From contig CAYWKA010000003.1 in the NCBI GenBank assembly GCA_964459265.1, forward strand, positions 1-53,433: a stretch of DNA of 53,433 nucleotides. Reading direction: 5' to 3'. Of this stretch, positions 28,076-31,916 are shown one piece after another. Within the stretch, counting starts at the first letter, position 1. The number at the start of each line of letters is the position of its first letter. This DNA comes from an uncultured Candidatus Saccharibacteria bacterium (lineage in GTDB: Bacteria; Patescibacteriota; Minisyncoccia; Minisyncoccales; Paceibacteraceae). The notes beneath the pieces were generated by a model. It was not told the DNA's origin. It ran no database searches and was given only the letters and a program-made list of their open reading frames with translations. Position numbers and translations under genes: made by a program.

Positions 28076-28106
28076 AATAAAAACAGCCCCCTTTTATTGG
28101 AAGCTG
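28076..28106 (-). terminator. Rho-independent terminator (minus strand) closing the orphan unit
   Basis: On the minus strand: CAGCUUCC-AAUAAAA-GGGGGCUG (8 bp including two G-U) followed by UUUUUAUU. Confidence 0.5.
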
Positions 28107-28117
28107 CTTGCATATTA

Positions 28118-28148
28118 AATTAAACCCCCCGTAACGGGGGGTTTAATT
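28118..28148. terminator. Perfect 13-bp inverted repeat (bidirectional hairpin)
   Basis: AATTAAACCCCCC-GTAAC-GGGGGGTTTAATT. It overlaps the stop codon of the small acidic ORF. Confidence 0.5.
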
Positions 28149-28269
28149 ACTCAGCTTTTTCTTCGTCACCTTCTGAAGCTCCTTCTGGAGTTTCAGGAGC
28201 ACTTTTTTCTCCTTCTGGCTCTTCGGTTTCGCAGATAAAAGGAGTTAGAACTTTATCTTCGTAAATCAT
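28147..28269 (-). CDS. Possible 40-aa highly acidic peptide, or a non-coding part of an sRNA
   Basis: ATG at 28269 to TAA at 28147 encodes MIYEDKVLTPFICETEEPEGEKSAPETPEGASEGDEEKAE. It lies between a consensus promoter and two hairpins but has no Shine-Dalgarno sequence, so coding status is uncertain. Confidence 0.3.
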   Translation of the reverse strand: MIYEDKVLTPFICETEEPEGEKSAPETPEGASEGDEEKAE

Positions 28270-28384
28270 GGTTTTTTATAATAGGTTATCCCGCTTTCGG
28301 CGGGACGTTTATTTTTATTTAATTTATATCGACCTTTCCGAACACATAAAACTATCTTATGTGCTTGGTGGGTTCTACAGAGTC

Positions 28385-28412
28385 ATTATACGTATCGAAA
28401 AAAACTTGTCAA
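28385..28412 (-). promoter_or_regulatory. Near-consensus sigma70-type promoter TTGACA-N16-TATAAT (minus strand)
   Basis: The reverse complement reads TTGACAAGTTTTTTTCGATACGTATAAT. It starts 4 nt downstream of the stop of ORF 28416-28724. Confidence 0.55.
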
Positions 28413-28809: not shown

Positions 28810-29529
28810 CTACATTTTTATATTGGAGTATATTTCTTGGACGGCATCGTTTTCGTCCAGGGCTTCGAAAAGTTTTTGGCAAGCCTGTTTATCTTTTTCT
28901 TCTAACTTAATTTGCTCTTTGGCTACCCAATCTAAAGAAGTTGTTTCGGTCTCGATATTCTTATCTTCCAGGTTTTTCTTGACTTTTTCCAATTCTTCGG
29001 GCTTAGTATAAACATCTAATACGCCGTCGTGCCAATAAATATCTTCCGCCCCCGCTTCAATAGCTGCTATTTCCAGTTCTTCCTTGTCTTTCCCTTGAGG
29101 ATTAACGGTAATCGTCCCCTTTCTTTCAAAGAGCCATTTTACCGAACCTTCGCCGACTAATTTCCCGCCGTTTTGGTATAGAATCTGCTTGATTTCTCCT
29201 AAAGTCCGGTTTTTATTGTCAGTAATCCCTTCAATAATAACAGCTATTCCGCCCGGGCCGTAGGCCTCAAAAACAACCGATTCTAATTGAACCCCCTCTA
29301 ATTCGCCAGTACCTCGTTTGACAGCCCTTTCAATGTTCTCGGCTGGCATGTTAAGACTTTTAGCTCTTTCAATGATTAGTCTTAATTTAGAATTAAACTC
29401 CGGATTGTCACTTCCTTCTTTAGCCGCAACGGTAATTTCTTTGGCCATTTTAGAAAACGCCTTGCTTCTTTTAGCATCGGCTAATCCCTTTTTATGTTTT
29501 ATGCCGGCCCAATGAGAATGCCCGCTCAT
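28810..29529 (-). CDS. yebC: YebC/PmpR-family transcriptional regulator
   Basis: MSGHSHWAGIKHKKGLADAKRSKAFSKMAKEI is the invariant YebC N-terminus; 239 aa. Confidence 0.95.
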   Translation of the reverse strand: MSGHSHWAGIKHKKGLADAKRSKAFSKMAKEITVAAKEGSDNPEFNSKLRLIIERAKSLNMPAENIERAVKRGTGELEGVQLESVVFEAYGPGGIAVIIEGITDNKNRTLGEIKQILYQNGGKLVGEGSVKWLFERKGTITVNPQGKDKEELEIAAIEAGAEDIYWHDGVLDVYTKPEELEKVKKNLEDKNIETETTSLDWVAKEQIKLEEKDKQACQKLFEALDENDAVQEIYSNIKM

Positions 29530-30449
29530 ACCGTTTTATTATATACCTTTTTTGTTCGGTCTTTAAGTAATAAAATTATTATGCCAGAGAAAAAAGCTAC
29601 TCCCAAGGCAACCCAAAAAGGGAAATCAGCAGGCTCTCTGGATGTTTGTTCGCCAATTGCCGCTAACTCTTTTATAGGTTTTTCTTTCGCTTCTTTTTCT
29701 GGAATAGTTTCTTTTACTTTTTCAGAAAATTCAGCTTCTCTCGACTCCGGAATTAAAGAAGGAACAACATTGGCAGACCCCGGAGTTAAAACCCCGCTCC
29801 AGGCCCAGCCAGATTCGGTTCGGTTGTAAGATTCTCCCCGCGGAGCCTTTTTATAACTGACCGCGTCAATTATGTTTCCGTCAGGTTGGATAAGCTTTAA
29901 TCCGTCGCCGCTGTTGTTCAGGGTAATTTTGGTAACAGGACGGGTGAGAACTAAAAAACCCAGGGTTTTAATTATTGTTTTTTCGGGGAAAATATAAGTT
30001 TTAGTAGTACCGACCGTGTCGGTAACCCGCCATTCAGAAAGGTCAACTTCAAAAGCGTTTTGATTAAAAATTTCAATCCATTCTTCTTCGGTATCAAGTC
30101 CTTCAGGAGAAGGAAGAAATTCATTTACAACAACGCCTCCGGGATAAGTTATTAATTTAGGCGCTTCTTTTTCTTCGTTTTCTATCCAAGCTAAACCCTG
30201 CTCTTTGATATCTTCAACTCTCGCCTCGCTTATGCCTTTTATCTTGGTAAGTTCGTCTAAGGAAGAAAACGGCCTTAAAGAAATCAGCTCTCTCGCCCTC
30301 GTTTCCCCTATGTGAACGATTTTAACTAAATCTTCTAAAGGAGCAGTATTAATGTCTATTTTCTCTGCGGCAAAAACAAAAATAATCACCGACAATCCGG
30401 TTGAAACAACCAAGCAGAAAACCAATAAAGCCCTTGACAAATTACGCAT
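29526..30449 (-). CDS. ComEA-type helix-hairpin-helix DNA-binding domain fused to a lamin-tail domain, with N- and C-terminal hydrophobic anchors
   Basis: HhH: IDINTAPLEDLVKIVHIGETRARELISLRPFSSLDELTKIKGISEARVEDIKEQG. LTD: VVVNEFLPSPEGLDTEEEWIEIFNQNAFEVDLSEWRVTD...GDGLKLIQPDG. C-terminal FPFWVALGVAFFSGIIILLL plus a basic tail. ATGA overlap with yebC. Confidence 0.8.
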   Translation of the reverse strand: MRNLSRALLVFCLVVSTGLSVIIFVFAAEKIDINTAPLEDLVKIVHIGETRARELISLRPFSSLDELTKIKGISEARVEDIKEQGLAWIENEEKEAPKLITYPGGVVVNEFLPSPEGLDTEEEWIEIFNQNAFEVDLSEWRVTDTVGTTKTYIFPEKTIIKTLGFLVLTRPVTKITLNNSGDGLKLIQPDGNIIDAVSYKKAPRGESYNRTESGWAWSGVLTPGSANVVPSLIPESREAEFSEKVKETIPEKEAKEKPIKELAAIGEQTSREPADFPFWVALGVAFFSGIIILLLKDRTKKVYNKTV

Positions 30450-30462
30450 AAACTGTTAAAAT
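30434..30462 (+). promoter_or_regulatory. Consensus sigma70-type promoter TTGACA-N17-(TGn)TAAAAT on the plus strand
   Basis: TTGACA at 30434-30439, a 17-nt spacer ending in TGT, and TAAAAT at 30457-30462. It overlaps the start codon of the minus-strand comEA-LTD gene and points into the intergenic region. Confidence 0.55.
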
Positions 30463-30468
30463 ATAAGA

Positions 30469-30616
30469 TAAACTTTGTTTAAAAACAGCCCTAGATCTGG
30501 GGGCGGGATTCTTCTCTTGATGGACAATCTGGCTTAGGCGAGATTCCTCCTCAGAAAGATTCTAAACTTAAGTTCCTACGCTTTGGTGCCCCCAGCTCCG
30601 GGGCTGTTTTTATTTT
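30469..30616 (+). ncRNA. Predicted ~150-nt structured small RNA of unknown class, antisense to the pilB-comEA intergenic region
   Basis: The start is inferred ~7 nt after the -10. A long closing helix pairs 30481-30492 with 30600-30611 (12 bp) and 30497-30504 with 30588-30595 (8 bp, CTGGGGGC/GCCCCCAG). The 3' end GGGGCTGTTTTTATTTT is terminator-like. Confidence 0.45.
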
Positions 30617-30620
30617 AGAA

Positions 30621-31916
30621 TTATTCAGCGGCCACCCTTTCCACTTCCTCTATAGTAGTGATTCCTTCTAACGCTTTAACTAAACCGTCTTGATACATTG
30701 TGACCATTCCTCTTTTTACCGCTTCTTCTTTAAGAGCGGCGATGGAAGGGTTCTTTAAGATAAACTTTTCCATTTTGTCATCAACCAAAAAAGCCTCAAA
30801 GATACCAATTCGCCCCCGATAACCGGTATAGTTGCAGCTTTTACACCCCTGAGCTTTAGGGATTTTTATTGCCCTGCCAGTTTTAAGGATTTCCACTTCT
30901 TTGGAAACTCTTTTTAAACTCTTTTTTATTTTCTTTAATTCTGAAGAGCTCGGTTTGACTAATTTTCCGCACTTTTGACAAATTTTTCTGACCAACCTTT
31001 GGGCAACCGCCATATTTATAGCTGGCCCGATATCGGCTGGTTTAGCCCCCAAATTAACCAATCTAGCTATAGTACCGGCAGCGTCATTAGTGTGTAGAGT
31101 AGTAAAGACTAAATGGCCGGTAAGAGCAGCTTGAAGGGCGATTTCGCAAGTTTCCAAATCTCTTATTTCGCCCACCAGAATTACATCAGGGTCTTGGCGC
31201 ATAATTGATTTAAGGCCGGTGGCAAAGTCATACCCCGATTTAGGGTCAGTTTGGGTTTGGGAGATTCCTTTTAAATGGTATTCAATAGGGTCTTCAATGG
31301 TAATAATTTTGACTTCCGGTTTATGAATTTCTCTTAAAAAAGAATAAAGAGTAGTAGTTTTCCCCGAACCGGTGGGTCCGGTAACAATAATCATTCCATT
31401 AGGTTTTTTGATTTCTTTTTTAAATAAAGCAAACAAATCATTTCTTAGCCCTAGTGTTTTTAAATCTAATAAGCTTTTTGGGTTTAAAATTCTCAAGACG
31501 ACTGACTCTCCGTATTCTGAGGGCAGGAGAGAAGCTCTAATCTCTACAGTTGTTTCATTAAGTGCCGCTGACAATCTCCCGTCTTGAGGGCGGTCAGTGA
31601 TGTTTAATTTGACTCCCGAAAGGAGCTTTAGGCGGGAAAGAATAGTGTCATACAGTTGTTTTTCAAAAAAAATAAGGTCTTGCAAAACCCCATCAATTCT
31701 TATACGAACTTTTGTTTTTTCTTCTTTTGGTTCAAAATGGATATCAGAGGCTTCAAGTAAGATTGCGCCTCCAAAAATAACTTCTAAAATTTCAGTAACA
31801 TTTTTAACTAAAGAGTTCTCAACTTTTTTCTTAAAATCAGTAATATTTTTAATTTCTTTAAGGCTAGCCGGCGAGATTTTTACTTCACCAGTAATCTTCT
31901 TTGAAATTTGAGGCAT
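30621..31916 (-). CDS. GspE/PilB-family type IV pilus / type II secretion assembly ATPase (short form)
   Basis: Walker A GPTGSGKTTT, Asp box, Walker B ILVGEIRD, His box TGHLVFTTLHTNDA, and a tetracysteine motif CQKCGK...CKSCNYTGYRGRIGIFE. Confidence 0.9.
   Translation of the reverse strand: MPQISKKITGEVKISPASLKEIKNITDFKKKVENSLVKNVTEILEVIFGGAILLEASDIHFEPKEEKTKVRIRIDGVLQDLIFFEKQLYDTILSRLKLLSGVKLNITDRPQDGRLSAALNETTVEIRASLLPSEYGESVVLRILNPKSLLDLKTLGLRNDLFALFKKEIKKPNGMIIVTGPTGSGKTTTLYSFLREIHKPEVKIITIEDPIEYHLKGISQTQTDPKSGYDFATGLKSIMRQDPDVILVGEIRDLETCEIALQAALTGHLVFTTLHTNDAAGTIARLVNLGAKPADIGPAINMAVAQRLVRKICQKCGKLVKPSSSELKKIKKSLKRVSKEVEILKTGRAIKIPKAQGCKSCNYTGYRGRIGIFEAFLVDDKMEKFILKNPSIAALKEEAVKRGMVTMYQDGLVKALEGITTIEEVERVAAE

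Follow-up and report, generated by a model that had tools for sequence, protein, structure and literature searches.

Two small RNAs, 6S RNA and the RNA of the signal recognition particle (SRP), are near-universal in bacteria, and a further set of structured noncoding RNAs belongs to single lineages; raiA, OLE and Bacteroidales-1 are orphan families of this kind, found by comparative genomics. Small RNAs can also be encoded opposite protein genes, as with GadY, a convergent cis-antisense RNA that overlaps the 3' end of gadX, and AspocR of Listeria is an antisense RNA under riboswitch control. The Paceibacteria (Parcubacteria), of the Candidate Phyla Radiation (CPR), form a very large group, hardly any of it in culture, in which genomes measure ~0.5-1 Mb and the regulators known so far are few. 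The stretch of DNA considered here, called the window, is positions 1 to 53,433 (53,433 nucleotides, nt) of contig CAYWKA010000003.1 (assembly GCA_964459265.1), part of a CPR/Paceibacteria-type genome of 558 kb that is 96% complete. An earlier note on the window proposed that the gap between a pilB-like and a comEA-like gene, both on the minus strand, holds a structured RNA transcribed from the plus strand; the gap is 171 nt long, as the note had it and as the ends of the two open reading frames (ORFs) confirm. Comparative evidence supports a predicted stand-alone plus-strand RNA of ~140-150 nt with its own sigma-70-type promoter, also as that note had it. This predicted RNA is a member of an uncatalogued, single-copy family that is spread across the class Paceibacteria.

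Evidence for a conserved RNA gene

The predicted RNA has a simple overall shape, in which a closing stem of ~20 base pairs (bp), P1, leads to a three-way junction that carries a long arm, P2-P3, and a short hairpin, P4, with a U-tract at the 3' end. A DNA search recovered homologues of 70-85% identity in about 20 genomes, which belong to different families within the order. Covariation analysis of such relatives was suggested in the earlier note, and compensatory changes are plentiful. In an alignment of 17 sequences, RNAalifold scored 24 of 43 pairs as compensatory, and in a model-based alignment of 38 homologues pairing holds for 93% of the cells, with changes on both sides in 33 of 49 pairs. 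None of 500 shuffled versions of the larger alignment matched the real value, and when the partners were slid against each other 43-58% paired. Compensatory change is found in 15 of the 20 pairs of P1, where 95.5% of the cells are paired, and in four of the seven pairs of P4 (80% paired); all seven P4 pairs covary in a class-wide alignment, and 22 of 29 pairs are compensatory in the class-wide alignment of the core.

The same alignments indicate which strand is read. G-U pairs outnumber A-C oppositions by 207 to 49 among the homologues, an excess that assigns the RNA to the plus strand, and 36 of 38 sequences have G-U as one pair at the base of P2. The plus-strand fold is also the more stable one in 35 of 38 homologues, with a mean advantage of 11.6 kcal/mol. 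A chance hairpin fails as an explanation of these patterns, and the element is, on comparative sequence evidence, a conserved RNA gene.

Promoter and predicted structure

The promoter described in the earlier note, TTGACA-N17-(TGT)TAAAAT overlapping the comEA start codon, can be read directly in the sequence as TTGACA-N17-TGTTAAAAT at 30434-30462 of the plus strand, directed into the pilB/comEA gap. Reading and promoter scan agree on a -35 hexamer, TTGACA, at 30434..30439 and an extended -10, TGT-TAAAAT, at 30454..30462, the latter kept in homologues; the scan scores the promoter 11/12 with its TG extension, the second best site within 8 kb. The ATG of the comEA-like gene (30447-30449, minus strand) falls within the spacer. 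Among 38 homologues of the order, 37 have an element of the form TTGAC(A/T)-N15-19-TAnnnT upstream of the RNA on the same strand, at a distance of 3-20 nt from P1 in all but one of the order's loci, and the same promoter type faces pilB in 19 of 20 loci (pilB 3' flanks) fetched from other orders.

Transcription would start ~7 nt past the -10 and end in the U-tract, which gives a predicted RNA at 30470..30616 (plus strand). Its minimum-energy fold, at -62.3 kcal/mol, has a z-score of -6.05 and was equalled in stability by none of 200 shuffles; the fold of the reverse strand is weaker, at -54.6 kcal/mol. The long closing helix of the earlier note is present in the minimum-energy fold with both of its pairings, an outer one of AAAAACAGCCCT (30481-30492) with GGGGCTGTTTTT (30600-30611) and an inner one of CTGGGGGC (30497-30504) with GCCCCCAG (30588-30595). 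With flanking pairs included, the 5' strand of P1 covers 30480..30504 (outer part 30480-30492, inner part 30497-30504) and the 3' strand 30588..30612; the latter forms, together with the U-tract TTTTTATTTT (30607-30616), a predicted intrinsic terminator, which was listed by a terminator scan on the plus strand. The 83-nt interior enclosed by P1 and the terminal U-tract are likewise as had been described. A U-tract (at least five T in 9 nt) follows P1 in 35 of 38 homologues, and an A-tract, which is a U-run on the minus strand, precedes it in 23 of 38, in keeping with the further suggestion that the structure would serve as a terminator on the minus strand, where it could end pilB transcripts. 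The element thus has the features of a putative bidirectional terminator, with a stem and U-run on the plus strand and an A-run and minus-strand fold on the other.

Within the interior, the long arm P2-P3 occupies 30506..30563. P2 pairs 30506-30516 with 30553-30563, beginning with the near-invariant G-U pair and followed by an internal loop, and P3 pairs 30522-30533 with 30538-30550 below a UUAG tetraloop at 30534-30537. Three (A/G)GATTC words that the earlier note took for repeats are present, one base later than it had them (starting at 30506, 30541 and 30557), and are strands of P2 and P3 and not repeats. The junction sequence UCUAAAC and hairpin P4 follow at 30564..30587 (P4 30566-30587), with a conserved UUCC(U/C)A loop. 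A 10-nt palindrome, AACTTAAGTT, does lie at 30565-30574, as had been noted, and is the 5' strand of P4; it is not palindromic in homologues. A helix proposed between GGCTTAGG and CCTACGCT did not hold up, for these segments are complementary at 7 of 8 positions here and yet lie outside the fold, and a kissing interaction fared no better, since the complementarity of the arm apex to the P4 loop is equal within genomes (mean 4.57) and between them (4.61). The sole ATG in the RNA opens a frame of five codons that is not conserved, so that a small ORF was rejected.

The part of the structure conserved class-wide is the P2-P3 arm. Unpaired and junction bases that are near-constant across the class are CUUAG, GGA/UCCUCGG, UCUAAAC and UUCCYA; in structural terms the conserved elements are a CUUAG/UC internal loop, a GGA/UCC helix, a G-G or G-U mismatch below the tetraloop, UCUAAAC and UUCCYA. 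The P3 tetraloop itself switches among homologues (UUAG, GAGA, GCGA, UACG, UUCG), and at the P3 tip some lineages have insertions of their own, ~20-60 nt long and in part folded into additional hairpins (locus L027, G044:C1 ~153848-154050; also L081, L086 and L072). The tip is a tolerated expansion site, probably directed away from any binding surface.

Distribution and genomic context

A covariance model, R1, spans 30481-30616 in the window (111.3 bits, E = 2e-30) and, for the order, detects the RNA in 130 of the 151 genomes that were sampled (86%; ~80 families), nearly always with E between 1e-15 and 1e-37, values that are rough by design, as are those of all the models built here. Each genome has one true match; the near-palindromic stem adds a weak echo on the reverse strand. 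DNA search and R1 agree that the element is single-copy in the source genome, by which a repeat or mobile element was ruled out. A second model, R2, built on the core, has exactly one match in each of 76 of 121 genomes of the class; the resulting rate of 63% is a lower bound, strict filters having been applied. No match was found, at the sensitivity of R2, in 144 genomes of the phylum's other classes. Run without filters, R1 finds the P2-P3-P4 core, on the promoter strand, in most of 20 pilB flanks from other orders. There the sequence of the closing stem is another one (CUSUAGGCA / UGCCUASAG), and in some of these lineages the junction is four-way, with an additional hairpin inserted between P1 and P2. 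In these predicted structures a single core is common to the three-way form of the source order and the four-way forms found in other orders.

The position of the RNA relative to pilB is nearly constant. The two are tail-to-tail in all ~50 loci fetched from the order, and in the class 66 of the 76 R2 matches lie downstream of a listed pilB match, with the two on opposite strands in every one of the 66. Measured from the last pair of P1, the pilB stop codon falls at -6 to +7 nt in 27 of 37 loci, often within the U-tract; in the window it is at 30621-30623, 5 nt past the U-tract. The neighbour on the promoter side differs among genomes, being comEA-like, ruvB-like (~340 amino acids) or yebC, and in 25 of 38 homologous loci an ATG-started ORF of at least 60 amino acids opens within the RNA promoter. 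A full-length RNA with its own terminator is found apart from pilB in at least five genomes (G405, G371, G433, G385 and G408; loci L094-L096, L098 and L099). Three of these genomes, all of one family, have yebC within ~1.5 kb on the promoter side, and the terminator of the RNA is separate from that of the convergent gene.

Relation to known RNA families

The Rfam scan called for in the earlier note found no known family on the element. With Rfam 15 at gathering threshold the window yields two transfer RNAs (tRNAs) only, and at E <= 10 the best matches on the element are microRNA-type models with E > 1, no family matching weakly in a consistent way; the 19 loci from other orders have no Rfam match, and a full-text search of the literature found no description of this RNA. 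ARAGORN finds no tRNA, transfer-messenger RNA (tmRNA) or tRNA-like structure on the element, and the tmRNA of the genome is on contig C1. 5S ribosomal RNA (rRNA) and RNase P RNA were likewise rejected as identities, each being found elsewhere in the genome. Neither the element, its other-order variants nor the rest of the genome has a match to 6S RNA (RF00013), the search on the element and its variants extending to E <= 10, and a Ro/TROVE domain (PF05731) has no match in the genome, where the neighbours of the RNA are pilB and the comEA-like gene. A Y RNA and an Hfq-dependent small RNA were therefore set aside as identities, the genome having neither Ro nor Hfq.

SRP RNA was considered at greater length. 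The models RF00169 and RF01854 have no match at E <= 10 in the region or the whole genome, nor in any of 41 relatives. The M domain of Ffh (PF02978) is absent from the source genome and from the same 41 relatives, and was found in none of 201 genomes of the phylum, a count that rests partly on a first-look filter with few candidates. The SRP54 GTPase domain (PF00448) was found neither in the source genome nor in five near-complete CPR genomes, of which three are single contigs, and tblastn with an approximate E. coli Ffh sequence as query found nothing. Absence of ffh and ffs from Parcubacteria has already been published (Nelson & Stegen 2015, PMC4508563). Since no SRP model matches, no helix-8 motif is present and the lineage is without Ffh and FtsY, the RNA is not SRP RNA.

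Possible functions

A single-copy, strongly conserved RNA with a consensus promoter, present in 86% of the order sample and at least 63% of the class, likely does something central. The reading favoured here, with a probability of about one half, is that it is a stable, trans-acting folded RNA of ~140 nt, probably protein-binding, with a closing stem shared as the terminator of pilB. The loops and the junction stay nearly constant, in a class whose PilB proteins share only 45-60% identity, while the helices drift and covary, which argues for an RNA that binds a protein or a ligand, and not for one that acts through complementarity alone. Paired 5' and 3' ends and a strong promoter would make the RNA stable and abundant, and it would act in trans through the conserved internal loop, the junction and the P4 loop, most likely with a protein as partner. 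P1 would have a second use, ending transcripts of the convergent pilB and insulating pilB from the comEA-like or ruvB-like gene downstream; shared use of one terminator would be a simple reason for the RNA and pilB to remain tail-to-tail. Where the RNA did act as antisense to pilB 3' ends or read-through transcripts, this would then be secondary, a by-product of the layout.

Several observations weigh against a trans-acting role. The tight linkage to pilB (all ~50 loci of the order, 66 of 76 matches in the class) is unusual for a purely trans-acting housekeeping RNA, and a cis relation to pilB could be the main function. Searches of the genome found no gene for Hfq or Ro. Furthermore, some of the conservation of AAUUCUAAAC could reflect a DNA signal on the minus strand, a -10-like TAGAAT; the promoter scan predicts no minus-strand comEA promoter within the RNA gene, where this weak word is present.

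The cis relation can be taken further, to an RNA that acts only as cis-antisense regulator or insulator. As the complement of the pilB 3' untranslated region and of pilB-comEA/ruvB read-through, it would set the survival of pilB mRNA and downstream transcription through duplex formation, RNase III cleavage or head-on collision of polymerases. This alternative is unlikely, and it is the best surviving of the rivals. The strict convergence with pilB, at all ~50 loci of the order and in all 66 adjacent class matches, fits it well, as do a pilB stop codon in or beside the U-tract, a downstream gene that in 25 of 38 loci starts within the RNA promoter and for which no separate promoter is predicted in the window, and a stable minus-strand stem (-54.6 kcal/mol) followed by a U-run in 23 of 38 homologues. 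An antisense RNA, however, does not need a conserved fold, and yet the helices covary with a G-U bias on one strand, the loops and junction are conserved class-wide, and the family persists apart from pilB in several genomes. The earlier note, which had suggested that the RNA could be an antisense regulator, also extended the complementarity to the comEA 5' region; the predicted RNA starts ~20 nt upstream of the comEA ATG and so misses the start codon and ribosome-binding region. A plain antisense regulator is hard to reconcile with the variable partner gene, the class-conserved loops and the pilB-unlinked members.

A diverged 6S-like RNA, which would bind the sigma-70 RNA polymerase holoenzyme, has a low probability. 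What commends it is in part a gap in the inventory, 6S and SRP RNA being the sole near-universal small RNAs undetected here, in a genome where RNase P RNA, 5S rRNA and tmRNA were all found, and in part the architecture, with its long closing stem, branched centre and long terminal arm, together with the consensus promoter and near-universality in the lineage. Where relatives carry a fourth hairpin, a bubble could form by melting of the two short hairpins. Against this, RF00013 fails to match even at E = 10, the RNA is, at ~140 nt, shorter than typical 6S RNA, and the 5' side of the junction has only 2-4 nt in the consensus of the source order, where the 3' side is hairpin P4, so that there is no open bubble of the 6S type and no open template strand.

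Equally improbable is that the RNA is a subunit of a ribonucleoprotein specific to Paceibacteria. In one version it would assist the PilB/ComGA-like ATPase, or the DNA-uptake machinery encoded alongside, as cofactor or scaffold; a loose analogy is the pRNA of phage phi29, which serves a packaging ATPase. In the other, the RNA would have taken over a housekeeping role in a lineage without SRP and without recognisable 6S RNA.

Lower still stands a riboswitch-like sensor, in which a ligand at the junction would decide between a stop at P1 and antisense run-on into pilB, as with AspocR and other antisense RNAs under riboswitch control. A three- or four-way junction with invariant junction bases and variable tips is typical of aptamers, the closing stem of the would-be aptamer is itself the terminator, and strict convergence would make any read-through antisense to pilB; but P1, at ~20 bp, is very stable and faces no visible competing anti-terminator, no riboswitch family matches, and members unlinked to pilB share the same design. 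A bidirectional terminator, repeat or mobile element without an RNA product of its own is very improbable, for although the stem with its flanking A and U runs looks bidirectional and its 15-nt 3' motif has, as the earlier note observed, a second copy at 28076-28090 (minus strand), the recurrence is at chance level (E = 0.26), the element is single-copy, the consensus promoter is conserved at a fixed distance, and the 83-nt interior is conserved and covarying.

Neighbouring genes and other features of the window

The pilB-like gene (30621..31916, minus strand, convergent with the RNA) encodes a PilB/GspE-family ATPase of 431 amino acids (PF00437, E = 6e-116). PilB proteins across the class are only 45-60% identical. 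The RNA-linked PilB/GspE of the source order has only these 431 amino acids and is without the N-terminal ~130 amino acids of orthologues from other orders, whose open frames are ~555-600 amino acids long. A connection between the short PilB and loss of the fourth hairpin was rejected, several lineages with a PilB of ~560 amino acids being also without that hairpin. A second, full-length PilB paralogue (607-amino-acid frame, 44% identity) is encoded at G000:C12:5079-6299, with no RNA adjoining.

On the promoter side, the comEA-like ORF (29526..30449, minus strand) encodes a protein with helix-hairpin-helix and lamin-tail domains; its start codon is read as CAT at 30447-30449. The N-terminus of the promoter-side gene, M-x-N-L-S-R, is an antisense reading of the -35 region (window 30434-30449, loci L009-L060), and this start is identical whether the gene is comEA-like or the ~340-amino-acid ruvB-like ORF. 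Within the comEA-like coding region, on the antisense strand, positions 30300-30405 (plus strand) match the ribosomal S15 leader model only weakly, at 20.2 bits where the gathering threshold is 39.5 (E = 0.019), and most likely by chance.

The copy of the 15-nt motif at 28076-28090 belongs to another terminator hairpin, whose 3' half it forms. Directed into an ORF-poor stretch of the window, 28076-28412, is a perfect TTGACA-N16-TATAAT (28412-28385, minus strand); the stretch ends at ~28076-28110 in a hairpin, AGCAGCUUCC-AAUAAAA-GGGGGCUGUU, followed by U residues. This minus-strand unit may be a second small transcript or the mRNA for an acidic peptide of 40 amino acids.

Significance

The RNA would be among the first that are specific to the Paceibacteria lineage, and its constant place against the gene of a pilus/competence ATPase offers a concrete starting point for work on its function. 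The gaps beside pilB are at present left blank or annotated as terminators; models R1 and R2 would permit annotation of the RNA in thousands of metagenome-assembled genomes.

Comparison with known systems

Of the described RNAs, 4.5S/SRP RNA (RF00169) is alike in being small and stable with paired ends, and differs by its helix-8 motif, which is missing here, and by its dependence on partners (Ffh and FtsY) that this lineage does not have. 6S RNA (SsrS) shares the long closing stem, the long terminal arm, near-universality in the lineage and probable abundance, but a three-way junction here replaces the two-sided bubble, the RNA is ~40 nt shorter and the 6S model does not match. Y RNA and YrlA, which associate with Ro (Rsr), also combine a long stem formed by the ends with a branched module, unlike the present RNA in that no Ro gene accompanies it and no Rfam model matches. 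The layout of the GadY type is found here, with an RNA convergent to a protein gene and a 3' end that overlaps or abuts the 3' end of pilB, so that the full-length target mRNA would carry the complement; the differences are a conserved, covarying fold of tertiary type with conserved loops, and relatives located away from the supposed target. The predicted RNA resembles raiA, OLE and Bacteroidales-1 in being a stand-alone gene with strong covariation, confined to one large lineage, and it is set apart from them by the absence of an Rfam 15 match and by a position that is nearly always locked tail-to-tail to pilB.

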